Under the pieces are notes generated by a model. That model did no database searches. It saw only the letters and a program-made list of their open reading frames with translations, and was not told where the DNA came from. A program made the translations under genes and the position numbers. From Phycisphaerae bacterium (lineage in GTDB: Bacteria; Planctomycetota; Phycisphaerae; Phycisphaerales; UBA5793), in contig JBDIVQ010000005.1 of NCBI GenBank assembly GCA_039794345.1, positions 2,132-66,131 on the forward strand: DNA of 64,000 nucleotides. Direction: 5' to 3'. Within the stretch, counting starts at the first letter, position 1. Each line of letters begins with the position of its first letter. Positions 1 through 61,931 of the stretch are shown here, in pieces.

Positions 1-403
1 GAGGAAAGAGCTGCCAATTCGGGCACACGTACCTGTAGTACCCCGTGGCGATGAGTTGCTCGCCGATGTCGTTTTCCGAGCGGCCGGGGGGGACGTTGAA
101 CCAGTACTCATCCATCCGCTCGTGGTAGCGGTAGACGTGCTCGCCGAGGGTGTCGATCGTGTACGCGACGGCCCGCGCATAGAGCACCTCCGCCTGCTCG
201 CGCGTGAAGCCGCGCTCCAGCCAGTGCTCGACCTGGAGGGGTCTGACGACCATCTTTCCCGTGAACTCCCAGCGGCCCGGCTCCTCACGCCACCGCTGCC
301 CCAGCGCCACGGCGGGGCTGTCAACAATCCAGATGCACACGAAAAGTGCGATCAGGGCGAGTGTCTTGGGGGGGGGGGGCACGTTGCGGGTGCGGTCGGT
401 CAT
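1..403 (-). CDS. hypothetical protein with hydrophobic N-terminus (secreted or membrane-anchored), 5' portion only; gene continues past the left edge
   Basis: Absent from the ORF track because it has no stop in the window. My reverse-strand translation starts at the ATG (cat at 401-403), which is preceded by GAGGGAGG. It reads MTDRTRNVPPPPKTLALIALFVCIWIVDSPAVALGQRWREEPGRWEF... and stays open to position 2. Nearly all third codon positions are G/C. Confidence 0.6.
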   Translation of the reverse strand, partial: MTDRTRNVPPPPKTLALIALFVCIWIVDSPAVALGQRWREEPGRWEFTGKMVVRPLQVEHWLERGFTREQAEVLYARAVAYTIDTLGEHVYRYHERMDEYWFNVPPGRSENDIGEQLIATGYYRYVCPNWQLFP

Positions 404-704: not shown

Positions 705-2456
705 ATGCGCCTGTGCCTGCTCCTGTTGGCCTGTCTGCTGTCGATCGTTTCACGGGCGGGCGCGACAGGAGGCGGTTCAGCACCGCCGGCTGCTGCGCCT
801 GAGGAACCAGCGCTGGTGCAGTGGATCTTCTTCACTGACAAGGGCATCGCCTCGCCGGCGCAACTCGACGCGGCGCTGGCCCGCGTTGCGGCGGCGGCCG
901 ATCCGCGCACCGTTGCCCGGCGTCAGGCGCGGCGGACGCTGCCGGGGCTTTTCGATGAGCGCGACCTGCCGGTTGTGCCCGGCTATGTCGAGGCGGTGAG
1001 GGCCACGGGCGCACGGGTTCGCGTTGCCTCGATGTGGGTCAATGCCGTGAGCGTGGAAGCGACGGCCGAGCAACTCGCGGCGATTGAGCGATTGCCATTC
1101 GTGAAGACCACTCAACCCGTGGCCCGTTCGCGCCGCATCGAGCCGCGCATCGCGCCGGCGCCCGCCGCCGCGCCGGATCAGCGCCCCGCGGGTTTCTACG
1201 GCCTGGCCGAAGATCAACTCGCGCAGATCAACCTCATCGAACTTCATAGCGCCGGCTACACCGGCCGCGATGTGCGCATCGGCGTCCTCGACACCGGCTT
1301 TCTCCGCACTCACGACGCCTTCAATCATCCGGAGCATCCCCTCAACGTCGTCGCTGAGTGGGACTTCGTCTTCGATGACGGCAACACCGCCAACGAGGGC
1401 AACGACCATCCCGACCAGCACAACCACGGCACGATCATCCTCGGCACGCTGGGGGGCTACCTCCCCGGTGAATACGTCGGCGGCGCCTACGACGCCTCCT
1501 TCATCCTCTGCAAGACGGAGGACATCCGCAGCGAGACGCCCGTCGAGGAGGATTATTACGTCGCGGGCCTCGAGTTCATCGAGGCCAACGGGGGCGACAT
1601 GGCGACGGCGTCGCTCATCTACATCGACTGGTACACCCAGGAGCAACTCGACGGCCGGACCGCGGTCTGCACCATCGGCGTCAACATTGCCACCGCCAAC
1701 GGCGTTCACTGCTGCAACGCGGCAGGCAACATGGGGCACGACCAGAATCCTAATACGTCTCACCTCGGCGCGCCGGCCGACGCCTTCCAGGTCATCACCT
1801 GCGGCGCGGTCGAGCCGACGGGCGAGATCGCCGGCTTTTCCTCCGACGGGCCGACGGCGGACGGGCGCGTCAAGCCCGAGGTGCTGGCGCGGGGCACGCA
1901 GGCGTGGAGCGTGGCGCCGTGGGACAACCACGGCTGGGCGGAGGCAGCGGGCACATCCATGTCCACCCCACAGGTTGCCGCCGTCGTCGCCTGCCTCATC
2001 GACGCCCGGCCGAACTGGACCGTCGATCAACTGCGCGAATCGCTGTTCACCACCGCGGATTATTACGTTCTCAACGGCACGTTCGATCCGCTGCACGTCC
2101 ACGGCTACGGAGTCGTCAACGCGTATGATGCGCTCGGGCTGCTGCGCCTCGCGCCGCCCGATCCCGGGACGGCGGGCGTGAGCAACACCCTCACGGCAAC
2201 GGAGGCGGAGCCGGGCAGTCGCGTGTATTTCATCTACTCAATGAGCGAGGGATCGACGGCGGTGCCGAACTGCCCCGGCGTGGAAGTGGAACTGCGCCGG
2301 CCGGTGACCGCCGGCTCCGCGGTGGCGGATGGAAACGGCGCAGCGCAACTCGTGCGTTTCGTCCCCGGGGGCGCGTCGGGTCGAACGGTTCACATTCAGG
2401 CGGTGGACGCCGCGGCTTGTCGAACGTCCAACCATGTCGTGCATCAGTTCCCCTGA
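705..2456 (+). CDS. secreted subtilisin-like serine peptidase (S8 family)
   Basis: ORF 642..2456. Catalytic contexts are VLDTGF (Asp), HNHGT (His) and GTSMSTPQVAAV (Ser). The internal ATG at 705 gives a signal-like MRLCLLLLACLLSIVSRAGA and follows GGAGGAG. The 21 upstream codons are Arg-rich and are probably not translated. Confidence 0.9.
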   Translation: MRLCLLLLACLLSIVSRAGATGGGSAPPAAAPEEPALVQWIFFTDKGIASPAQLDAALARVAAAADPRTVARRQARRTLPGLFDERDLPVVPGYVEAVRATGARVRVASMWVNAVSVEATAEQLAAIERLPFVKTTQPVARSRRIEPRIAPAPAAAPDQRPAGFYGLAEDQLAQINLIELHSAGYTGRDVRIGVLDTGFLRTHDAFNHPEHPLNVVAEWDFVFDDGNTANEGNDHPDQHNHGTIILGTLGGYLPGEYVGGAYDASFILCKTEDIRSETPVEEDYYVAGLEFIEANGGDMATASLIYIDWYTQEQLDGRTAVCTIGVNIATANGVHCCNAAGNMGHDQNPNTSHLGAPADAFQVITCGAVEPTGEIAGFSSDGPTADGRVKPEVLARGTQAWSVAPWDNHGWAEAAGTSMSTPQVAAVVACLIDARPNWTVDQLRESLFTTADYYVLNGTFDPLHVHGYGVVNAYDALGLLRLAPPDPGTAGVSNTLTATEAEPGSRVYFIYSMSEGSTAVPNCPGVEVELRRPVTAGSAVADGNGAAQLVRFVPGGASGRTVHIQAVDAAACRTSNHVVHQFP

Positions 2457-2669: not shown

Positions 2670-4448
2670 TCAGTTCCGCGCCGTCTCATCCAGCGCCAGA
2701 TCGCCCGGCACGCCGAGGTATTCGAGGGCACGGTTCATCATCGTCGCGGCGACGGGTCCGCACACGGCGCCGCCGAAGTGGCCGAGGCTGCGGTCGGGGT
2801 CTTCGATGATGCAGAGGACGACGAGGCGGGGATCGTCCAGCGGCGCGCCGGCGATGAAACTGATGATGTAGCGGTCCTTGTGGTAGCCGCGGCCATCGCG
2901 CCGCGGCATTTCGGCCGTGCCCGACTTGCCGAACATGCGATAGCGCGCGACTTCGTTGGCCTTGCGTCCGCTTCCCAGCGTCATCACCTTTCGCATCGTC
3001 TGGCGGGTGAGATGAGCGGTCGATTCGAGCATGGGCCGCTGTGTAACATAAGGCACAATCGGCACATCCTGTGTGGGGACGATGAGGTTGATCGGGGGCA
3101 TCGAGCCGTCGCGGCAGAAGGCGGCGAAGGCCCGCACCATCTGGAGGGGCGTCACCGCGATCTCATGCCCCATCGAGACGCTCGTCTGCGTGTAGTGCGT
3201 CCACTCCTTCGGTATCGTGACAATGCCGCCGGTTTCGCCGGGCAGGCCGCTGCCGGTGGGCCGGCCGAAGCCGAAGTCCGCCACGCACTGCTGCAACTGC
3301 CGGTCCGTGAGTCGCAGCGCCGCCTGGGCCATGCCGATGTTGCTCGATTTGATCATCACGCCTTCCCAGGTGAGTTCGGGGTAGGGATAGGCGTCGCTGA
3401 TGTGCCGGCCGCGCGGCGTGCGGTAGGAGCCGTTGTGCGTGTTGAAGACTTCATCGATGGGGACGAGGCCGAGTTCCGTCACCCGCGCCCACACAAAGGA
3501 CTTGAACGTCGAGCCGGGTTCATAGGGATCGGTGATGCAGCGAAGGCGCGCCAGGCTGGGGTCGAGGGCGCGCAGCGGATCATCGGTGTAGGGGCCGTAG
3601 CCGGGGCGGTCGCGCAGGAGATCGGTCATGGCGAGGATCTCGCCGCTGTGGGGATCGAAGATCATCGCCCGCCCGCCGCCGGCATTGACCGCCTCGACGC
3701 CGGCGCGAATCTCCTCCTCGACGATGCGCTGCATCTCGACGTCGATGGCGAGGCGCACGTGGCGTCCGTCGGCGCCGGGAACGTGCCCGTCGCGCTCGAC
3801 CCACATCGCGTTGCGGTTGACGTCGCGCAGGTAGCGGAGGCGTCCGGGCCGGCCGGTGAGGACGGAGTTGTAGATGGCTTCGACGCCGCTGCGGCCGATG
3901 TGGTCGGTCCCGACGAGTCCGATGAGCGGGGCCGCGAGGTCGCCGTAGGGCCGGTGGCGCACGAGGACCGGCTCGACGCCGACGCCGCGGAAACTCGCGG
4001 TTCTCACCGCTTCGAGTTCCGCATCGGTGAGCAGGTCGATGAGCACGGCATAGCGCTTGTCGAGCCGCTCCTGCACCTTGCGATCGAGTTCGACGGGGTT
4101 GCGGCCGAGGAGGCTCGCGATGTCGATGGCGATGGTGTAGGGATCATCGACCTCCTGCGGATCGACAAAGAGGCGGTAGCCGACGCGGCTGGTGGCAAGG
4201 ACGCGGCCGCGCCGATCAAGGATGTCGCCGCGGTTGGCCATCTCGGGCCGGGTGGAACTGGTGAGCGGCGTATGGCGCACCAGGTTCTCGCTCGGCGCCG
4301 TCTGGAGTTGCGCCACGCGCGCCAGAACGAGCATCATCGCGCCGATGACCGCCGCCACGAGGAGGTTGAGCGCCAGGCCGAAGCGCCGGGTTTCAGATGC
4401 TGCGGGTCGAGCGGGTTCGAGGTGCATGGGGGCGTGCGGCCCGTTCAT
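2670..4448 (-). CDS. ftsI: peptidoglycan D,D-transpeptidase FtsI / class B penicillin-binding protein
   Basis: Contains the transpeptidase motifs STFK (GSTFKSF), SSN (KSSNIG) and KSGT (GKSGTAE). It has an N-terminal TM helix (LALNLLVAAVIGAMMLVLA). Its start overlaps the stop of the upstream ftsL-like gene by 4 nt. Confidence 0.9.
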   Translation of the reverse strand: MNGPHAPMHLEPARPAASETRRFGLALNLLVAAVIGAMMLVLARVAQLQTAPSENLVRHTPLTSSTRPEMANRGDILDRRGRVLATSRVGYRLFVDPQEVDDPYTIAIDIASLLGRNPVELDRKVQERLDKRYAVLIDLLTDAELEAVRTASFRGVGVEPVLVRHRPYGDLAAPLIGLVGTDHIGRSGVEAIYNSVLTGRPGRLRYLRDVNRNAMWVERDGHVPGADGRHVRLAIDVEMQRIVEEEIRAGVEAVNAGGGRAMIFDPHSGEILAMTDLLRDRPGYGPYTDDPLRALDPSLARLRCITDPYEPGSTFKSFVWARVTELGLVPIDEVFNTHNGSYRTPRGRHISDAYPYPELTWEGVMIKSSNIGMAQAALRLTDRQLQQCVADFGFGRPTGSGLPGETGGIVTIPKEWTHYTQTSVSMGHEIAVTPLQMVRAFAAFCRDGSMPPINLIVPTQDVPIVPYVTQRPMLESTAHLTRQTMRKVMTLGSGRKANEVARYRMFGKSGTAEMPRRDGRGYHKDRYIISFIAGAPLDDPRLVVLCIIEDPDRSLGHFGGAVCGPVAATMMNRALEYLGVPGDLALDETARN

Positions 4449-4804
4449 CGGACCGCCTCCGTCGCGGCTGTCTCCAGCGCGCGATCAGGCAGCACCGCGG
4501 AGGCCGGCAGTTCGACGAGGTAACACTCGCTCAGCAGCAGCGGCACCAGCCGTTCACCGGTTTCCCGCTCGAGGGCGGAGGCGAGGGCGGCGACGCGATC
4601 CTGGCGGAGTCGCTCGTGAATCGCCACGCGCAGGCGCCAGGAGCGCTCCTCGTGCTGGAGGAGCCGCCGATGGGTGACCGACATCTGGTACGCCGCTTCA
4701 ATGCGCTGCTGGCGGATGACCAGCAGGCCGCACGACGTAGCGCCGGCGATGAGGACACAGACCGCGACCTTGGGAACGAGCGCCATATCCCACTTCATCG
4801 ACAC
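4445..4804 (-). CDS. FtsL-like cell-division membrane protein (small bitopic, coiled-coil)
   Basis: 119 aa with a single N-terminal TM (VAVCVLIAGATSCGLLVI) followed by a Arg/Glu-rich helical region. It sits immediately upstream of ftsI with an ATGA overlap. The assignment rests on architecture and position, not on a sequence motif. Confidence 0.55.
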   Translation of the reverse strand: MSMKWDMALVPKVAVCVLIAGATSCGLLVIRQQRIEAAYQMSVTHRRLLQHEERSWRLRVAIHERLRQDRVAALASALERETGERLVPLLLSECYLVELPASAVLPDRALETAATEAVR

Positions 4805-5868: not shown

Positions 5869-6804
5869 TCAGGCGGGCGCCGCGATGCGGATGGCTCTGA
5901 GTTTAGCCGACCGCGCCCGGGGGTTCACCGTGGTCTCGTCTTCGCCTGCCGTAAGGGGCTTGCGGGTGATGCGTTCCGCTGCGCCCCGTTTCACCAGCGC
6001 CGCCATGCGCTGCTTGATGATGCGATCCTCCAGGGAGTGAAAGCCGATGAAGGCCAGCCGCGCTCCCGCGTTGAGCCATCCGGCGCTGCGGCGTGCTTCG
6101 TCGGCCGCGCGTTCCAGTTCATCCCACAACCCTTCGAGCCGGCCAAGTTCGTCGTTCACGGCGATGCGCAGGGCCATGAACGTCTTCGTCGCCGGATGCA
6201 TGCGGGAATGTCGCGCCCGGTTTCCATACGCCTCGCGCACCGCTTGCGCGAGGTGCAGCGTACTCTGTATCGGCTGAGCCGCTCGAATCGCGACAATCTG
6301 CCGGGCGATTTTTCGCGCCAGCGGCTCCTCGCCGCAGCGGAAGATCAGGTCCGCCAGTTCGCGCTCGCTCGATTCGTTGATGATCTGTTCGGCCGTCACC
6401 GCCGCCGTGGGATCGAGGCGCATGTCGAGCGGGCCGTCGGCGCGGAAGGAGAGCCCCCGCCTCGGATCATCCATCTGCGGGGAGGAGAACCCGAGGTCGG
6501 CGAGCACCATGTCGGCCCGGACTCCGTCGCGCCTCAGGATCGCCGGCGCATCGACGAAGTTTGCGTGGTGCGTCAGGACGCGGCAGCCCGTCGCCGCCAC
6601 CCGCGCGAGCGCGAACGCCGCGTTGGCCGGATCGAGGTCGAAGCCGATGACCCGCCCGCCCGGCCCGAGCAGCCGCCCGACCGCTTCGGCGTGCCCGCCG
6701 CGCCCGATGGTCAGGTCCACGAGCGTCTCGCCGACGCGCGGCGCGAGCGCCTGCAGCGCCTGTTCGAGCAGGACCGGCATGTGTCCGACCGCGTCAGGAC
6801 TCAA
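5869..6804 (-). CDS. rsmH: 16S rRNA (cytosine1402-N4)-methyltransferase RsmH (MraW)
   Basis: HMPVLLEQAL...LVDLTIGRGGHAEAV SAM-binding N-terminus. DLGFSSPQMD motif. C-terminal NPRARSAKLRA. The start may be the internal Met 8 codons downstream. Confidence 0.9.
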   Translation of the reverse strand: MSPDAVGHMPVLLEQALQALAPRVGETLVDLTIGRGGHAEAVGRLLGPGGRVIGFDLDPANAAFALARVAATGCRVLTHHANFVDAPAILRRDGVRADMVLADLGFSSPQMDDPRRGLSFRADGPLDMRLDPTAAVTAEQIINESSERELADLIFRCGEEPLARKIARQIVAIRAAQPIQSTLHLAQAVREAYGNRARHSRMHPATKTFMALRIAVNDELGRLEGLWDELERAADEARRSAGWLNAGARLAFIGFHSLEDRIIKQRMAALVKRGAAERITRKPLTAGEDETTVNPRARSAKLRAIRIAAPA

Positions 6805-54926: not shown

Positions 54927-55553
54927 ATGCCGCAGCGTGTTACACCGATCTTCGGGCTTGTGATGGTGTCTGTGCTTGCTATCGTGGGAAACGGCTGCGC
55001 TTCCTACTACGGCGGGACATCAAACGAAAGCCCCATCTTGGTCGCTGAGCATGGTTCAGTCGTCCCGCTCTACCGCTTGTCGATCTGGCAGGAGCCGTCT
55101 TTCCCGGATCCTTTCGGCCGGCCCGTGCTGAGTGCGCTGGTCCATGAGCCGAAGACTGATCTCTCTTCCGCAGAACTCAAACAGCTGCTCTCGTCGATTC
55201 CAGATGAGTATGTCCTTGAGCGCTCTGACGGCGAATTGACCACCGCCAGAACGCTCAGAAATCCTGTTGCCAAGGCGACGTCAAACGAAGTGGCGTGGGA
55301 CATGCGCTGGGTGCTCAGTATCGAGCCGCTCGTCATTGCGATCTCGGCGTACTCTCCCGATGCCTGGTATGAGCGTGACCCCACCTGGGCACGATTCTCC
55401 AATCCACCGATGCGTTTCGTGGAAGAGCGACTCAAGTCGGTGCAAGTCACGCGGTACATCGTCGTGCGGGATCGCGAACCAGTGACAACGGTGCTGAACC
55501 AAGAGCGTTCCCTTGGAGCGCTACTTGAATCGCAGCCGTGGAACGGCGAGTAG
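54927..55553 (+). CDS. hypothetical lipoprotein (orphan, lower G+C)
   Basis: Lipobox VLAIVGNGC, preceded by GAGGAG. No recognisable domain. Many A/T third positions (GTT ACA ... CTT GCT ... TCT), unlike the neighbouring genes. Confidence 0.6.
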   Translation: MPQRVTPIFGLVMVSVLAIVGNGCASYYGGTSNESPILVAEHGSVVPLYRLSIWQEPSFPDPFGRPVLSALVHEPKTDLSSAELKQLLSSIPDEYVLERSDGELTTARTLRNPVAKATSNEVAWDMRWVLSIEPLVIAISAYSPDAWYERDPTWARFSNPPMRFVEERLKSVQVTRYIVVRDREPVTTVLNQERSLGALLESQPWNGE

Positions 55554-55639
55554 AGTCCTCAGAGGGGCAGCATGTCGCCCCGATCGCGGTGCGCACTGAC
55601 TCGACTCTAACTGCACGTTCGCACATCGCATCGGTGCAA

Positions 55640-57121
55640 TCATGAGTCGAGACGTTCCCGCACCAGTTGGATGAAGCGCTGCCCGCGCTGCTCGAAGTTG
55701 GTGAACTGGTCCCAACTGGCGCAGCCGGGGCTGAGCAGGAGAATGTCGCCGGCCTCCATTCGCGCCATGGCGCTGCGGACCGCAACGTCCAGCGTGCGGC
55801 AGTGCAGGCACGTCCCCGTCGGCGCAAGGTCGTGGATCCGCTCGCCCACCGCGCCGATGGCGTAGAGTCGCGCGACGCGCTCGCCCAGCGCCGCCAGCGG
55901 CGCGAGATCCGCCTTCTTGTCGTACCCGCCGACGATGAGGTGCAGCCGCGCGGGATCATCGAAGGACTCGACCGCGAGCGCGGCAGCGGCGGGGGTGGTG
56001 CACTTGGAGTCGTTGTAGAAGCGCCGGCCGTCCTTCGTCTGCGCCACGAGTTCGAGTCGGTGGGGAAGGCCGCGGAAGTCCGCCAGCGCGGCGATTGATT
56101 CGTCAAATGGCACGCCAGCCGCACGGCATGCCTCAGCGGCCATGAGCGCATTGAGGCGATTGTGCCCGCCGGGGATGAGCAGGCTGATCCCCGCGAATCG
56201 CAGGTCGTCCGCGGCGATGTCAGTGCGCTCGACGCCTTCGCTGGTCGGCCAGTCGCGCAGGCCGGGGCCGAGGATCGCGTGATCACCGGGGTGCTGGTGC
56301 GCCAGCAGGTGCTGCTTGGAGGCGCGGTAGTGATCGAGCGAGCCATGCCAGTCGGCGTGGTTGTCGCTGAAGTTCGTGATGACGGCGACGTGGGGGGACC
56401 ATTTGTGGGTTTTGGTTAGCCGCGACGCGGAGGCTTTGCGCAGCGGAGCGCGGGCGTGCGACGTTGAAAAGTCACCCCCACCCCCGCCCTCCCCCGCAGA
56501 GCCGGGGGAGGGAGTGCCTTCGGTTAGCCGCGACGCGAAGGCTTTGCGCAGCGGAGCGCGGTCGTCCGCAGTCCCCGCGCCCCCCAGCCACCACAGCATC
56601 GCGCTGGACAACTCGAGCACGACCCACTCCTCCGCGCCGATCTCGACGCCGAGCAGCGAGCCGCCGATGTTGCCGCCGAGGTGCGCGGCGCCGCAGTGCG
56701 CCCGCAGGATGTGATGAATCATCGCGCTCGTTGTGGACTTGCCCGCCGTACCTGTCACGCCGATGATGCGATCGCGATCGGGCAGTGAATCGATGAGCAG
56801 TTCGATCTCCGTGGTGATCTCTGCGCCCGCCTCGCGTGCCGCGTTGAGGAACCGGTTCTCCCACGGCCGCGGCACCGCCGGATTCGCCACGACCAGGTCC
56901 GTCTCGCGGAAGTCGCGCTCCTCGTGCCCGCCGAGAACCAGCGTCACCTGTCCGGCATCAACCAAATCGCGCACGGATTCGAGCGAATCGGCGAGTTGAT
57001 CGGCAGAGGCGAGATCGGTCAGCAGCACGCGGCAGCCGCAGCGCTGCACGAGCCAGCGCGTTACTCCGACGCCGCCGCCGAAGTGCCCGAGGCCCATCAC
57101 GGTGACCCGCTGTTGCGTCAT
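55640..57121 (-). CDS. murD: UDP-N-acetylmuramoylalanine--D-glutamate ligase, carrying an in-frame repeat insertion
   Basis: VTVMGLGHFGGGVG Rossmann N-domain. GVTGTAGKSTT P-loop. VLELSS strand. ITNFSDNHADWHG. C-terminal YNDSKCTTP and LLLSPGCASWDQF. About 57 extra codons lie between VLELSS and AVITNF. Confidence 0.9.
   Translation of the reverse strand: MTQQRVTVMGLGHFGGGVGVTRWLVQRCGCRVLLTDLASADQLADSLESVRDLVDAGQVTLVLGGHEERDFRETDLVVANPAVPRPWENRFLNAAREAGAEITTEIELLIDSLPDRDRIIGVTGTAGKSTTSAMIHHILRAHCGAAHLGGNIGGSLLGVEIGAEEWVVLELSSAMLWWLGGAGTADDRAPLRKAFASRLTEGTPSPGSAGEGGGGGDFSTSHARAPLRKASASRLTKTHKWSPHVAVITNFSDNHADWHGSLDHYRASKQHLLAHQHPGDHAILGPGLRDWPTSEGVERTDIAADDLRFAGISLLIPGGHNRLNALMAAEACRAAGVPFDESIAALADFRGLPHRLELVAQTKDGRRFYNDSKCTTPAAAALAVESFDDPARLHLIVGGYDKKADLAPLAALGERVARLYAIGAVGERIHDLAPTGTCLHCRTLDVAVRSAMARMEAGDILLLSPGCASWDQFTNFEQRGQRFIQLVRERLDS
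56414..56561. repeat. direct-repeat pair with central hairpin embedded in frame in murD
   Basis: 40-nt units ggttagccgcgacgcg[g/a]aggctttgcgcagcggagcgcgg at 56414..56453 and 56522..56561 (39/40 identical, 108-nt period). A perfect 10-bp stem lies between them: ccctcccccg 56487..56496 / cgggggaggg 56503..56512. Confidence 0.85.
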
Positions 57122-58530
57122 GGCTGGCCGTAGCGGTGGCGGTATTTGCGGTCGAGCGCCTTCTGCTTGTTGTCGAGATCGACTTCCGCCCCGTCGATGT
57201 ATGCGGCGAGGACGTGGGTGGTGATTTCGAGCGGATCGCCGTCGGTGATGATGAGCGTGGCGTTCTTGCCGGTTTCGAGCGAGCCGAGCACCTTGCCCGC
57301 TCCGATGATTTCGGCGGCGCTGAGTGTGACGGCGCGCAGAGCGATCTCAGCGGGCAGGCCGTACGCCGCCGACTTCGCCGCGTGATAGGGCAGGCTGCGC
57401 TCGTGGGCCGGCTCTTCGCCGCTGGCGATGCAGAAGCGAATGCCCGCCTCGTGAAGCGCCAGCGGCAGCGTGAAAGGCTGGTCGTGCGCAAGGTCGCGGC
57501 GCGTCGGCATGCGGTGCGTGCCGACGACGATAACGGGAACGTCGTGAGCCTTGAGCAGGTCGAGGCACTGGTCCGCGTCGGCACCGCCGACGATCACCGC
57601 GCGCAGGTTCATGCGGTTGGCCCACGCGACGGCCGAACGGATCTGCGCCGCATCGCCCGCGTGAATGAAGACCGGCACGAGGCGGTCGATCGCCGGCAGC
57701 ATCGACTCGAGGCGCAGGTCAACGGGGAAGGTGGGATCGGCGCTGCGGGCGCGCTGATAGGCCCTGGCCTCCTCGAAGGCGCGGTCGATGCGGTCGAGAT
57801 TCTCTTTGCTGCGGCGGAGTTGCTCCTCTTCGCTCTCCTCGATCCACCACGCCGTGCGCGGCCGGACGTTGGGCCAGCGCACCACCAGCCCGGCGCGGTC
57901 GGCGATGGTGAGTTCTTCCGTCGTCCAGCCGTCGAGGCGGATCGTCGAGCAATAACCCGAGATTGTCCCTCCCTGCGGCACGACGAGGGCGGTGAGGATG
58001 CCGTTGGCGCGTGTGACGGGGATGAGCGCGCTGTCGGGGTTGACGGCGATGACGGCGCGGACCTCGGGCGTGATCGCGCCGGTTTCGCTCACGTCGATCG
58101 TGGCGCGGACGGCGCCGATCTCGCTCAGCCCCAGCGTCGTGTCGGCGCTGATCAGGCCGGGATAGACGTGCTTCCCCGCGGCGTCGATCACTTCCGTCTC
58201 GCCCGCGGCGGCGTAGGCGCCGGCGCCCACGTCGGTGATGATCCCGTCGCGGAAGACGATGTAGCCGCGCTCGATCGACTCGCTCGACACCGGGTGGATC
58301 GTCGCGTTGACGATGGCGATGGTCTTCTCCTGCGGCTGCCCGGGGATCTGGATCGACTGGGCGTGCGCCGATGCCACGAGGCACAGCGCCGCCGACACAG
58401 CGAGAAGCACTGAGGCGGACGCCCACGATGAGGCTCTGCGAATCGTGGGGTGCTCTCCGCGAATCGCAGCGAGCCTTCGCTCCCCTGCGCAGAGCCTTCG
58501 GGTCGCGGCTAAACAGGTCATCAGGTTCAT
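57118..58530 (-). CDS. amidohydrolase-family protein (secreted), metal-binding HxH motif apparently absent
   Basis: Part of ORF 57118..58824, starting at MNLMTCL (ATG after GGAGGAA). Signal-like ASASVLLAVSAALCLVASAHA. Amidohydrolase N-terminal pattern (IVNATIHPVS...GKHVYPGLISADTTLG), where ISAD replaces the usual xDxHxH. The stop overlaps the murD start (ATGA). Confidence 0.75.
   Translation of the reverse strand: MNLMTCLAATRRLCAGERRLAAIRGEHPTIRRASSWASASVLLAVSAALCLVASAHAQSIQIPGQPQEKTIAIVNATIHPVSSESIERGYIVFRDGIITDVGAGAYAAAGETEVIDAAGKHVYPGLISADTTLGLSEIGAVRATIDVSETGAITPEVRAVIAVNPDSALIPVTRANGILTALVVPQGGTISGYCSTIRLDGWTTEELTIADRAGLVVRWPNVRPRTAWWIEESEEEQLRRSKENLDRIDRAFEEARAYQRARSADPTFPVDLRLESMLPAIDRLVPVFIHAGDAAQIRSAVAWANRMNLRAVIVGGADADQCLDLLKAHDVPVIVVGTHRMPTRRDLAHDQPFTLPLALHEAGIRFCIASGEEPAHERSLPYHAAKSAAYGLPAEIALRAVTLSAAEIIGAGKVLGSLETGKNATLIITDGDPLEITTHVLAAYIDGAEVDLDNKQKALDRKYRHRYGQP
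58420..58514. repeat. composite of the murD-type and nuoJ-type repeat units inside the amidohydrolase 5' coding region
   Basis: The reverse complement of 58478..58514 matches the murD unit at 33/37. The reverse complement of 58420..58450 matches nuoJ 33705..33735 at 30/31. A partial extra unit (gcgaatcgcagcgagcc) lies between them. Confidence 0.8.
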
Positions 58531-61500
58531 TGGTGGTATTCCTCCATTCCGCAGCCGCACTCGCCCGGGCGCGAGGAGTGGGGGTCGTAGCCCATCTCGT
58601 AGCGGCGGCGCATCAGTTCCGCGAGAGCGCGGCGCTCGGGGGGGATGTCGCCCTCCTCGGCCGGCTCGGCAGGCTTCTCCTCCTCCGCCTTCTTCCGGTC
58701 CTTTTCCGGGTCCTTGAGGTTCTTTCTGAGGACCTTCTGAATGAGGCGCTGGCGCTCCGCCTTTGCCGCCTGCTGCATCGCGAGGTCGCTCTCGATGCTG
58801 AACATCTGCCGCCCCTCGATCCACGTCTGTTCGCAGCGGGCGAGCGTGCTCAGCGGCGAGGCGGACCAGATGACGAAGTCCGCGTCCTTGCCGACCTCGA
58901 TCGAGCCGACGCGGTCGTCGATCGCCAGTTGCCTCGCGGGATTGATGGTGACGAACTTGAGGGCCTCGGCGGGATCGACGCCGCCGTAGCGCACCGCCTT
59001 GGCCGCCTCGGTGTTCATGCGGCGGGCGAGTTCATCGGAGTCGGAATTGAAACTGACGACGACTCCCGCGTTGTGCATGATCGCGCCGGCGTAGGGGATG
59101 GCGTCGTAGACCTCAAACTTGTAGGCCCACCAGTCGCTGAAGGCCGACCCGCCCACGCCGTGTGCGGCCATCTCGCTGGCGACCTTGTAGCCCTCGAGAA
59201 TGTGCTGGAACGTGCCCAGCGTGAAGCCGAACTCGTCCGCGACGCGAATGAGCATGAGAATCTCATCCTGCCGGTAGGAGTGGCAGTGGACGAGGCGCTC
59301 GCCGGCGAGGATTTCGGCGAGTGTTTCGAGTTCGAGGTCGCGGCGCGGGGGATACTGGCGCTTCGTCGTCGCCTCGCCCGTGTTGTAGCGCTGCCAGGCT
59401 TCGGCGTAGTCCCGCGCCGCGAGAAAGGCACTGCGGATGAGCGTCTCGACGCCCATGCGCGACTGCGGGTAGCGCGTCGTGAAGTTGTCGCCCCAGTTGG
59501 CCTGCTTGACGTTCTCGCCTAGCGCGAACTTGATGCCGCCCTTGGCGCCCTCGAAGCGGAATTGCTCCGGCCCGAGTCCCCAGCGGATCTTCACGACGGA
59601 GTTCTGCCCGCCGATCGGGTTCGCCGAGCCGTGCAATTGGTTTGCGGCGGTGAGGCCCCCCGCGAGCTGGCGGTACCAGTTGATGTCATCGGGGTCGATG
59701 GCGTCGTTGATGCGCACTTCGGCCGTGATCGCCTGCGTGCCCTCGTTGATGCTGCCGCGGTCAATGCCGGTGTGCGAGTGACAGTCGATCAGGCCCGGCG
59801 TGAGGTGCTTGCCCGTCGCGTCAATGATGAGCGCGCCGGAGGGGGCGGCGAGGCTGCGGCCGATCTGCGCAATCTTCCCGCTCTGCACCAGCACATCGGT
59901 CTGTTCGAGGATGCCCGCCTCGGCGCTCGTCCAGACGGTGGCGTTGCGGACGAGCACGGCCTCGGGCTGGTCGCGCGGCTCGATGAGGCCGAACGCGCCC
60001 AGAGGCGTGGGATACTGCGCCGGTGCCGGCTCGTAAGGCTCCTCATCCGGCTTCTTCGCGTCTTTCGGCTCGTCATCCTGTGCTCCCGGCGCGTCAGCGG
60101 CTTGCTTCGCTTCGTCGGCATCCTCCTCGGCGCCGTCGTCGGCCTCCTCGGCCTCGATTTCTTGTGCGTCCTCCGCCCCATCGTCGTCGTCGTCGCTTTC
60201 AGCGGCGGCGTCGGGTTCTTCCGGCTTGCGCACGGCCGACCAGTCGAGTTCCTGCCCGTCGGCGGTTCGGATGATGCCGCGCATCGCATCGCCTTCGACG
60301 ACGCTGGTGTACTGCTCCCACGCGCCGCGGCCGTGCAGGTGGCCCGGGAGGACGAAACTGAGTCGCTCGACGCGCCACGAGACGGCCTTGGCCTTGGTCT
60401 TCGTCTCGCCGATCGCCGCCTCGACCTCCGGCGATTCGGGCTTGCCGGTGATGATGAGGTCGAAGGTCGCGCCTCCTTCGCCGCCGAGCGTCGCCGCCCA
60501 GGTTCCCTGTGGTTTGACGGGGGGGACGGGCTTGAGTTCAATGCGTTCGCCGTTCACCCACAATGCGGTGACGGTGCGGTCTTCGCCGAAGATCTCACCA
60601 GTTCCCTCGATGACGGCGAGGTGGGCGATCATGCCCTGCTCGAGGCTCCCCACCACCTTGTCGAGTGCGAGGATCTTCGCGGGTGTGGTGGTGAGGGCCG
60701 CGAGCGCCTGCTCTTCCGTCAGCCCCTCCTTGATCGCCATTCGCAGATTGTCGAGGAACTTGTCGCGCTGGCGCAGAGAGGCGGTGGTGAGGGCGACCGT
60801 CGCCCCGCCCTCGATGAGGCGGCGGGGGTTGGTCGGCGCCTGCTCCCAGTGCATGAGGGTGAGGAGATCGACGCTGTCGGCGTCCTCGATCGCCTCGATC
60901 TTCGGCGGGCCGGGGAAATTGATCGGCAGGATGACGGGAAGGTTGGTTTCGAGGACTTCGCCGAGGCGTTGATACTCCTGCCCGCTGCCGAGCGCGTAGA
61001 GGTTGAGGTTGAACTCATCGCGCAGCCTCGCCGCGCGGAGCAGGTCGAGTTCATCGCTGGTGTTGAAGAGGACGGGATGCGGCGGGGTGCGCACGACGCC
61101 GCGAAGCGCCGCCAGCGAGTCGTTGGGCACGGGCGGCTCGAGGTGCATGGGGTTGAGGCGGTAGATGTCCATGCAGTGGGCGTACCAGTCGGCGTCGATG
61201 AACGTCTGCCGCACCAGCGCAACGGCGCCGATGAGCGAGCCGGGATACCCCTCGCTGCGCCAACCGCCCGTTTCAAACTGGACGACCTGCGCGCCGCGCG
61301 GCTGGTGGACGATCATCTCCGCCCCGTCGGCGACGAGGGCGATGGTCGCCGCCTGCCCGCGGAAGATGCCCGAGTCGGGGACGATCTGTGCGGCCGTGAA
61401 GCCGATCTTGTGCAGCGACTCGATCACGCTGCGCTCGATCGGGGCCGCATTGAGGGCGCTGAACTCGGCGCGGACCTTGCTGTTCCAGTGCAGTCCGGGC

Positions 61501-61835
61501 GAACTCGGCAAAGACGCCGGCGCGCGCACCGGCACCGCCAGGTCGATGAAGCCGGCATGGACGGTGTGGCCGGTCAGGTCCCAGACGCGCGCGTCGGGGG
61601 GGATGTTCGGCTCAGCGCCGACGTACTCGATCACGCCGTCGCGCAGGACGATCGTGCCCTGCTCGATGACTTTGCCCGGTGCGACGATGATGCGGGCGTT
61701 GGCGAGGGCGTGGATGCGCGGGACGTTGGGCGGCGGGCCGTTGGCCGGCTCGCTCGGCGGCTGGGCCGGTGCGGCGGCGTGCAGCATCCAGGAGAGGGAC
61801 AAGAGGGCGAGGCCGAAACGCGAGTGGCGAGCCAT
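58527..61835 (-). CDS. large two-module amidohydrolase-family protein (secreted)
   Basis: Part of ORF 58527..61928, starting at MARHSRFGLALLSLSWMLHAAAPA (signal). The N-module has GHTVHAGFIDLAVPV (no HxH). An acidic Asp/Glu/Ala linker follows. The C-module has GKHLTPGLIDCHSHTGID (intact HxH) and a later VSFNSDSDE. The stop overlaps the next start (ATGA). Confidence 0.8.
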   Translation of the reverse strand: MARHSRFGLALLSLSWMLHAAAPAQPPSEPANGPPPNVPRIHALANARIIVAPGKVIEQGTIVLRDGVIEYVGAEPNIPPDARVWDLTGHTVHAGFIDLAVPVRAPASLPSSPGLHWNSKVRAEFSALNAAPIERSVIESLHKIGFTAAQIVPDSGIFRGQAATIALVADGAEMIVHQPRGAQVVQFETGGWRSEGYPGSLIGAVALVRQTFIDADWYAHCMDIYRLNPMHLEPPVPNDSLAALRGVVRTPPHPVLFNTSDELDLLRAARLRDEFNLNLYALGSGQEYQRLGEVLETNLPVILPINFPGPPKIEAIEDADSVDLLTLMHWEQAPTNPRRLIEGGATVALTTASLRQRDKFLDNLRMAIKEGLTEEQALAALTTTPAKILALDKVVGSLEQGMIAHLAVIEGTGEIFGEDRTVTALWVNGERIELKPVPPVKPQGTWAATLGGEGGATFDLIITGKPESPEVEAAIGETKTKAKAVSWRVERLSFVLPGHLHGRGAWEQYTSVVEGDAMRGIIRTADGQELDWSAVRKPEEPDAAAESDDDDDGAEDAQEIEAEEADDGAEEDADEAKQAADAPGAQDDEPKDAKKPDEEPYEPAPAQYPTPLGAFGLIEPRDQPEAVLVRNATVWTSAEAGILEQTDVLVQSGKIAQIGRSLAAPSGALIIDATGKHLTPGLIDCHSHTGIDRGSINEGTQAITAEVRINDAIDPDDINWYRQLAGGLTAANQLHGSANPIGGQNSVVKIRWGLGPEQFRFEGAKGGIKFALGENVKQANWGDNFTTRYPQSRMGVETLIRSAFLAARDYAEAWQRYNTGEATTKRQYPPRRDLELETLAEILAGERLVHCHSYRQDEILMLIRVADEFGFTLGTFQHILEGYKVASEMAAHGVGGSAFSDWWAYKFEVYDAIPYAGAIMHNAGVVVSFNSDSDELARRMNTEAAKAVRYGGVDPAEALKFVTINPARQLAIDDRVGSIEVGKDADFVIWSASPLSTLARCEQTWIEGRQMFSIESDLAMQQAAKAERQRLIQKVLRKNLKDPEKDRKKAEEEKPAEPAEEGDIPPERRALAELMRRRYEMGYDPHSSRPGECGCGMEEYHQ

Positions 61836-61931
61836 GGGCGATCCCCGACGCGGTGAAAGCGAGAGTGTAGCCCGCACCGTCGCCGGCGAGAATCCGCCCC
61901 TTGCTCCGCCGGCCGCGCGCCGATGCAACGA

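Follow-up and report, generated by a model that had tools for sequence, protein, structure and literature searches.

We analyzed a 64,000-nucleotide stretch of contig JBDIVQ010000005.1 (positions 2,132 to 66,131 of the forward strand; GenBank assembly GCA_039794345.1), hereafter the window, from a Phycisphaerae bacterium in which the gene murD, encoding UDP-N-acetylmuramoyl-L-alanine:D-glutamate ligase, carries 54 extra codons within a single loop. These extra codons are very probably a cluster of small, non-autonomous, hairpin-forming dispersed repeats that inserted in frame into a permissive central-domain loop and are translated as a disordered, dispensable excursion, such that the insert would be a passenger rather than an adaptation. 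Sequence comparisons identify two of the modules as copies of a unit of the repetitive extragenic palindrome (REP) type and the third as a G/C-rich hairpin of a second repeat family, associate the unit with a single-tyrosine (Y1) transposase of the HUH (histidine, hydrophobic residue, histidine) kind, and indicate that the modules are distributed among orthologues in a stepwise, in-frame, and patchy manner.

The expanded loop contains 59 codons, whereas the same place holds 5 codons in the related locus L006 (L numbers denote the loci fetched for comparison) and 7 residues (164-170) in Escherichia coli. Read directly in the proteins of 17 orthologues and in the DNA of close relatives, the stretch between ELSSAMLxWLG and WSPHxAVxTN is 4-14 residues long in more distant relatives unless parts of the same elements are present. 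Two direct repeats in the window loop (56411-56460 and 56519-56568; 50 nt, 92% identity, spacing 108 nt) enclose an inner 40 nt (56414-56453 and 56522-56561) that agree at 39/40 positions, and a 39-mer search of the window matched twice, where 100 shuffles gave an expectation of 0.00. Between the repeats lies a perfect 10-bp hairpin (56487-56496 and 56503-56512) that folds better than 200/200 shuffles (z = -3.05). An earlier note on this DNA, made from the letters alone, had described the overlong loop, the two 40-nt copies with their spacing, the perfect stem, the translations RAPLRKA[F/S]ASRLT and GTPSPGSAGEGGGGGDF, and an intact frame with intact downstream ligase motifs, and our searches agree with it on all of these. 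The alignment with related orthologues that it had set as a check revealed the insert to be absent or partial there, with no non-repetitive loop of equal length. Its proposal of a repeat-element insertion is supported: the repeats are indeed dispersed, since the window holds a third copy and the contig collection has at least 109 stretches carrying the unit. It is also refined, in that the insert is a mosaic built stepwise from three or more in-frame modules, drawn from two families, rather than one element.

Each module is a multiple of three nucleotides in length and free of stop codons (Table 1). Two of them contain direct REP-like copies, A and B, of a ~38-nt unit, GTTAGCCGCGACSCGRAGGCTTTGCGCAGSGGAGCGC, whose consensus orientation, GTTAGCC to GGAGCGC, lies on the plus strand; unit B matches the family pattern and has a flank specific to it that begins GCGGGGACTGCGGACGAC. 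The third module, the core, consists of a CCCCCACCCC leader followed by the hairpin CCCTCCCCCG-loop-CGGGGGAGGG, the plus strand reading CCCCCACCCCCG-CCCTCCCCCG-CAGAGC-CGGGGGAGGG, and on its coding strand there are four G-tracts (GGGGGAGGGCGGGGGTGGGGG, 56475-56495) that form a motif of the G-quadruplex type. Taken as RNA, the 192-nt region also folds better than 200/200 shuffles (z = -2.9). The insert ends without terminal inverted repeats, having at most weak arms (15 nt, 80%), and its junctions, compared with the "empty site" of L002, show no target duplication beyond a 2-nt CA. A miniature inverted-repeat transposable element (MITE) is ruled out by this lack of terminal inverted repeats and of a target-site duplication. 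An array of clustered regularly interspaced short palindromic repeats (CRISPR) or a tandem repeat is likewise ruled out, as there are two direct copies here, no direct arrays in the family elsewhere, and no Rfam family in a search at E up to 1 over 55000-59000, and an intein or intron is excluded by size and by the absence of the respective motifs.

The unit belongs to a widely dispersed family. A degenerate pattern with 25 specified bases, derived from seven copies, was matched in those 109 or more stretches of the genome contig collection, nearly all from Planctomycetota, with carriers in Zavarzinella (including the isolate Z. formosa DSM 19928), Limnoglobus, other Gemmataceae, Planctomycetaceae, Pirellulales, and Phycisphaerales. 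Statistics on the unit rest on 136 copies outside the window. It is sharply bounded at ~38 nt and has the consensus ccgGTTAGCCGCGAC[G/C]CG[G/A]AGGCTTTGCGCAG[C/G]GGAGCGC, in which positions 10 and 27 are Watson-Crick coupled in 132/136 copies (G..C in 89, C..G in 43) and the remaining variable positions mix freely between these two states; the coupling fits two bases that pair within a long, imperfect hairpin containing G.A mismatches. The family is found both as singlets and as inverted doublets, and neighboring units are arranged head-to-head (plus, then minus) in 23/24 pairs, with gaps of -2 to 50 nt, and in direct orientation in 0/24. Open spans of ≥200 aa contain 53% of the units vs 85% of random positions, a depletion, and in the close relative PLA1 (L041) one unit stands 12 nt past a stop codon. 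Of the 136 sampled copies, only the one in murD of PLA1 has Pfam domains on both sides; the family therefore seldom inserts mid-gene, and the loop in murD is a true hot spot. A scan of viral sequences with the unit returned zero matches, leaving phage-borne spread without evidence, and a search of the unit-encoded peptide against a database of 5.8 billion proteins returned 29 candidates, none at E up to 10, which is uninformative on the number of carriers.

A gene for a ~196-aa protein has inverted units on both sides in L109 (Phycisphaerales) and L047 (Planctomycetaceae), and a frameshifted copy of it lies directly downstream of a unit in L080. The protein possesses the motifs GFWLPNDPRGSW, P[DE]H[VI]H, and RY..(E/Q).NP, and the two intact versions, from two different orders and 51% identical to each other, scored 23.0 and 27.4 bits against Pfam Y1_Tnp (cutoff 23). 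We conclude that the unit is a REP-type element tied to a divergent transposase resembling the REP-associated tyrosine transposases (RAYTs), one that does without the canonical GTAG tag. The class 3 TnpA-Y1 of Planctomycetes (Quentin et al.) was ruled out as the identity of this protein, with NHVH and YV..EQ there vs [DE]H[VI]H and Y[AV]..NP here.

Table 1. Positions of murD, its expanded loop and modules, and related features in the window and in the fetched loci.
Feature	Locus	Position	Strand	Details
murD coding sequence, intact	window	55640..57121	minus	493 aa; open reading frame list, Pfam, homologues, AlphaFold2 (AF2)
Whole expanded loop, 59 codons between ...AMLWWLGG and WSPHVAV	window	56402..56578	minus	protein and DNA orthologue alignments, AF2
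Module B, 57 nt, 19 codons	window	56522..56578	minus	REP-like unit B 56522-56560 plus 18-nt flank; translated DDRAPLRKAFASRLT
Core module, 51 nt, 17 codons	window	56466..56516	minus	hairpin arms 56487-56496 / 56503-56512; translated TPSPGSAGEGGGGGDFS
Unit A with 13-nt leader AACGTCGCACGCC	window	56414..56465	minus	REP-like unit 56414-56452, consensus orientation on plus strand; translated TSHARAPLRKASASRLT
Copy C, third unit copy, C..G subtype	window	58478..58515	minus (opposite to units A and B)	translated LAATRRLCAGER
Transposase gene	L109	131-721		units 58-96 (+), 736-775 (-)
Transposase gene	L047	4076-4666	minus	units 4025-4057 (+), 4703-4735 (-)
Extra hairpin hp2 in murD	L001	2462-2500		between core and unit A
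Extra hairpin hp2 in murD	L112	~5996-6034		between core and unit A
Extra hairpin hp2 in murD	L118	1-20		between core and unit A
Core hairpins in mfd	L004	19300-19450		two
Core hairpins in mfd	L005	20030-20170		two
Core hairpin in mfd	L006	19130-19200		one

The core is a member of a second dispersed repeat family, with 48 strict core-type hairpins in 757 kb of the other fetched loci vs 0-8 in shuffles. Members share the leader and a loop of the CARAGC type, frequently form inverted doublets ~100 nt apart, and include a copy in L041 that is identical to the window core, loop included. Mosaics of the two families thus also occur outside murD, with core-like hairpins directly adjoining units in L058 and L073 and a distance of ~160 nt between core and unit in L041. 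That the window and L004 have the loop GGCTCTGC in common was ruled out as proof that their murD cores are orthologous, as this loop is a family feature found identically in the unrelated L041. Core hairpins are also found in frame in the N-terminal linker of mfd, the gene for the transcription-repair coupling factor (TRCF), in three relatives (Table 1), where they encode peptides such as PHPSPPPP...GREQG and PFPGPPPQSPGREK.

Comparison of orthologous murD alleles revealed a graded series. Relative to L006, which has no insert and gives the reference length, L004 and L005 possess the G/C-rich hairpin core only (+54 nt); L002, L003, and L116 possess one unit only (+54 nt); the window possesses unit B, core, and unit A (+162 nt); and L001 and L112, from the two independent assemblies WBZO01 and WYBR01, possess a composite of a decayed unit B, core, a further hairpin, and unit A (+171 nt). 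Unit A is common to the window, L001, L002, L003, L112, L116, and L118. A neighbor-joining tree built from the murD codons outside the loop (200 bootstraps) grouped L116 with the window (99.5%) and L112 with the pair of L001 and L002 (100% and 99.5%), followed by L003 and then by L004, L005, and L006, so that composite and single-unit alleles are sisters in two pairs, window/L116 and L001/L002. Downstream of unit A, L118 is 99.2% identical in nucleotides to L002, and L118 has an extra hairpin that L002 is without. Given these sister pairs and the L118/L002 identity, module presence is polymorphic at roughly the species level. The extra hairpin, hp2 (GTCATTGCCGCGAACGCGGGAATCC, translated SSVIAANAGIQ), was found in murD only when all fetched loci were searched, and it may represent a third family of repeats or may have arisen locally.

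Once 57 nt (56522-56578) and 51 nt (56466-56516) are removed from the window, the loop is collinear with that of L002 (153 vs 153 nt, 134 identical), the two indels being separate, clean, and in frame, with the spacer GAAGG kept between them. Unit A, shared by the whole subclade, is the oldest module, and unit B (57 nt) and the core (51 nt) are later additions; B may have been copied locally from A or may represent a second insertion. The L002 "empty site" matches the flanks in the window, not those in its sister L001, indicating either precise excision or, as the simpler option, replacement of the allele through homologous recombination. An origin of the single-unit alleles from a window-like allele, through recombination of its direct repeats A and B with each other, was ruled out, as L002 and L116 retain the leader of A (AACG/ACT-TCGCACGCC) and the GAAGG/TCAGG spacer, not the upstream flank of B.

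With respect to the origin of unit B alone, slippage or unequal recombination within murD could have produced B from A, with the core inserted between them afterwards, in which case the direct repeat would reflect rearrangement of a single REP instead of two REP insertions; this scenario, which is compatible with the insert being a cluster of dispersed repeats, is plausible enough to keep in view, though the balance tips somewhat away from it. The similarity of A and B extends past the family consensus over the 50-nt repeats, including 7/9 bases after GGAGCGC where family members vary, direct pairs are otherwise absent from the family, and the GAAGGC after unit B resembles the GAAGGC after unit A in L003. 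However, the sequence between the copies is not duplicated, the 108-nt period is undetectable outside the unit, and the window differs from L002 by the two separate clean indels described above, with the GAAGG spacer retained.

The ligase that bears these modules keeps its three-domain architecture (Pfam MurD-like_N, Mur_ligase_M, and Mur_ligase_C), the P-loop GKST, its catalytic residues, and every invariant residue of a 120-sequence MurD alignment, and its reading frame is intact. Its best matches are MurD proteins: homologues number in the thousands in a protein database search, where the nearest named ones come from metagenome-assembled genomes (MAGs) of Phycisphaerales, and a PDB search returned MurD structures (E = 2.6e-42). 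An AF2 model, with the 120-sequence alignment as input, had a mean predicted local distance difference test score (pLDDT) of 88.4 and a predicted template modeling score (pTM) of 0.88. Averaged in blocks of 10 residues, pLDDT fell to 33-55 solely over ~181-240 and was ≥86 in all other blocks, with a poorly supported helix over the peptide of the first unit, and the top 33 Foldseek matches of the model were all MurD. The MurD fold is thus predicted to be intact despite the insert, and the insert is predicted to occupy a structurally permissive surface position, in keeping with the surface loop that the earlier note had suggested. In the PDB alignment, residues 164-170 of E. coli MurD are replaced by window residues 177-242, which puts the insertion between the short helix behind the ELSS strand and the strand ending in N178 and H183 (E. 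coli numbering); by the usual topology of parallel alpha/beta domains, this site would be at the end of the sheet distal to the active site.

The insert has what marks an in-frame intragenic insertion, in that it is absent from orthologues, belongs to dispersed families, keeps the frame, and leaves the host motifs intact. If it is a cluster of dispersed repeats, the unit would be mobilized by single-strand transposition of the RAYT type and, in an essential gene, only in-frame, stop-free insertions far from catalytic residues would survive. An existing hairpin repeat may then attract further repeats to the site, modules could disappear or be exchanged, either through precise excision or through homologous recombination of one allele with another, and the insert would be translated as a disordered, dispensable loop.

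Several points weigh against this explanation. At its 5' end the unit has the consensus ccgGTTAGCC (variants GTGAAGCC and GTTTAGCC), GTAG is absent, and CGTC is present internally on the other strand rather than as a terminal tag. The minimum free energy of the unit alone is no better than that of shuffles (z = +0.78 and +0.10), and units A and B of murD are in direct orientation, unlike all 24 sampled neighboring pairs, while single REPs (singlets) are not regarded as the mobile form in the literature on REPINs, the inverted REP doublets. For the transposase, the best NCBIfam match was REP_Tyr_transpos at 48.4 and 32.2 bits vs a cutoff of 80, the similarity in PDB was weak (E ~ 0.1 to ISDra2 TnpA, among the solved IS200/IS605 transposases), and no HUH motif or transposase was found within the 64-kb window. 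Lastly, orthologues resemble each other more closely in unit A and in the core than in the gene around them (P ~ 0.001-0.003), which could reflect constraint or function instead of neutrality.

A further possibility is that the unit represents an undescribed REP-RAYT lineage, with a REP near-unchanged across orders and two classes, and that the murD loop is a landing pad with repeated precise insertion and removal, even within species. The transposase is only ~51% identical while the unit is near-constant across Gemmatales, Pirellulales, Planctomycetales, and Phycisphaerales. We consider this stronger proposal unlikely.

More doubtful still is that the insert is retained for a function, be it that its peptide (a predicted short helix, RAPLRKAFASRLT, plus a Gly-rich linker) provides interaction or localization, or that its hairpins and G-quadruplex-type tract act on mRNA or DNA through translation pausing, mRNA stability, or protein binding. 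Roles at the mRNA or DNA level have been proposed for some extragenic REPs. In line with a function, unit A of the window is 47/48 identical to that of L001 and of L002 vs 84% for the flanking gene (P ~ 0.002), the core is 36/38 identical between the window and L004 over a background of 74%, the RNA fold of the region and the four-tract G-run on the coding strand are as described above, and the same murD loop holds such elements repeatedly in several lineages. However, alleles with and without modules coexist at 99.2% identity and differ between sister lineages, the unit of L003 has decayed at the background rate (38/48), and unit B is degenerate in L001 and L112. AF2 confidence over the insert is low and the unit family is overwhelmingly extragenic elsewhere. 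The high similarity of unit A and of the core can be explained equally well by a strong family consensus, as seen in the identical L041 core, and by selection. An assembly artifact, with a repeat cluster mis-joined into murD, or a pseudogene is hardly credible, for although the source is a MAG contig, the units disturb assembly and often stand at contig ends or N-gaps elsewhere, and the exact window protein is found on a single contig, the insert is in frame and stop-free with all three module lengths multiples of three, a homologous composite is present in two other independent assemblies (L001 and L112) and partial states at the same codon position in four more, catalytic and invariant residues are intact, and synteny is conserved.

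Among known systems, the unit most invites comparison with REP/REPIN-RAYT systems (the REPs and bacterial interspersed mosaic elements, BIMEs, of E. coli and the REPINs of Pseudomonas; PMC3116915, bioRxiv 10.1101/2021.07.10.451892), with which it shares a short (~38 nt), high-copy, sharply bounded, and mostly extragenic unit, inverted doublets with a spacing of 14-50 nt, inverted copies around a Y1 HUH transposase gene, and a compensatory position pair. It differs in starting with GTTAG rather than GTAG and in its divergent transposase, which is under the NCBIfam RAYT cutoff and 51% identical between two orders. REPINs have been described as lineage-specific and almost exclusively extragenic (bioRxiv 10.1101/2021.07.10.451892), whereas one unit sequence here covers several orders and two classes and the murD units are direct and intragenic, not inverted. 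REPs wholly inside reading frames of known function were reported by Di Nocera et al. 2013, with single or grouped repeats encoding 20-82 aa (clusters 43-82 aa), often at N-termini and often in DNA-repair genes, and the same study found REPs in the planctomycete R. baltica, along with tyrosine transposase genes that have repeats at their flanks (PMC3733652). The core copies in mfd of our relatives echo this enrichment in DNA-repair genes. The REP family, the host clade (Phycisphaerales), and the target (murD) are different from those cases, and here a series of orthologous alleles shows stepwise gain and loss along with polymorphism within species.

The classic case of in-frame palindromic elements in housekeeping genes is that of the Rickettsia palindromic elements (RPEs), reported to be compatible with protein fold and function (PMC10969869). 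Like them, the murD insert is palindromic repeat DNA in frame in a housekeeping gene, translated as an added segment, but RPEs are single elements of ~100-150 bp in an alphaproteobacterial intracellular parasite and have no sequence relationship to the murD elements, whereas here modules of 38-51 nt from two families are stacked in one loop. Enterobacterial BIMEs are mosaics of REP units and other short conserved motifs, much as units and core hairpins stand side by side in intergenic DNA (L058, L073, and L041); their REPs, however, alternate in orientation and are extragenic, while the murD cluster has direct REPs in coding frame. By defining features the murD insert fits the category of intragenic REPs and is not an RPE, MITE, BIME, or CRISPR array. 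The novelty lies in the particular REP family and the RAYT-like transposase that accompanies it, in how widely the family occurs across Planctomycetota, in murD as the target, and in the series of alleles; the type of event is already known and this is not a new kind of system.

Around murD, the window (55640-61928) has the gene outside the dcw (division and cell wall) cluster and preceded by two amidohydrolase genes, stop and start codons overlapping from one gene to the next, and this amidohydrolase-amidohydrolase-murD arrangement with overlapping codons is kept in L004-L006. Copy C of the unit lies in the second of these genes (57118..58526, minus strand), directly downstream of the gene for the 1133-aa amidohydrolase, where it stands in frame between a conserved ATGA-overlapped start (MN...) and the signal peptide. 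It adds ~24-31 residues to the N-region of the amidohydrolase and is also found in L001 and L112, not in L004-L006; translation of this protein might instead start at a downstream GTG. MurD itself has a second variable spot just before the conserved HLGGNIGG motif (alignment columns ~157-166, window residues ~145-146), where the proteins P0007, P0009, and P0010 have 7-9 additional residues (GAKAMRRRGS, SSAQVATSK, and GGARAA-R).

Many units stand at contig ends or beside N-gaps, often within ~100 nt of either end of a contig or near N runs (e.g., L047:4006-4015 and 4741-4750), and the family is an evident common cause of assembly breaks in Planctomycetota MAGs. Six-frame translations of the unit (RAPLRKASASRLT, LAATRRLCAAER, SRDAEALRSGAR, and RSAAQSLRVAAN) seed spurious reading frames. 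The WYBR01 MAG (L028, L033, L041, L067, L071, L088, L095, and L112) is titled "Vicinamibacteraceae bacterium isolate PLA1", an acidobacterial label that looks wrong: its murD is 94.5% identical in nucleotides to that of L001 and lies inside the Phycisphaerales clade, with the amidohydrolase-murD synteny and the repeat families in common.

For the organism, the outcome is a MurD that bears ~40-60 extra residues, predicted to be disordered, at one loop whose site is occupied or empty within species. The loop offers a permissive insertion site in MurD for protein engineering, and for annotation it means that such an odd loop is neither an error nor a new domain. The locus further provides a record, from an under-studied phylum, of two abundant families of repeats, which break assemblies and create spurious reading frames, and of a divergent RAYT-like transposase. 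Its graded alleles (none, core, unit, and unit with core and unit) give an unusually clear comparative picture of how REP-type elements build up at a hot spot and subsequently disappear, and they bear on the debate over whether REP and REPIN elements are parasites or domesticated sequences. If the unit does represent a REP-RAYT lineage of its own with murD as its landing pad, it would be under phylum-wide constraint, through a host function or old co-evolution with its transposase, and the locus would preserve, within an essential gene, direct natural evidence of how REPs insert and are excised.

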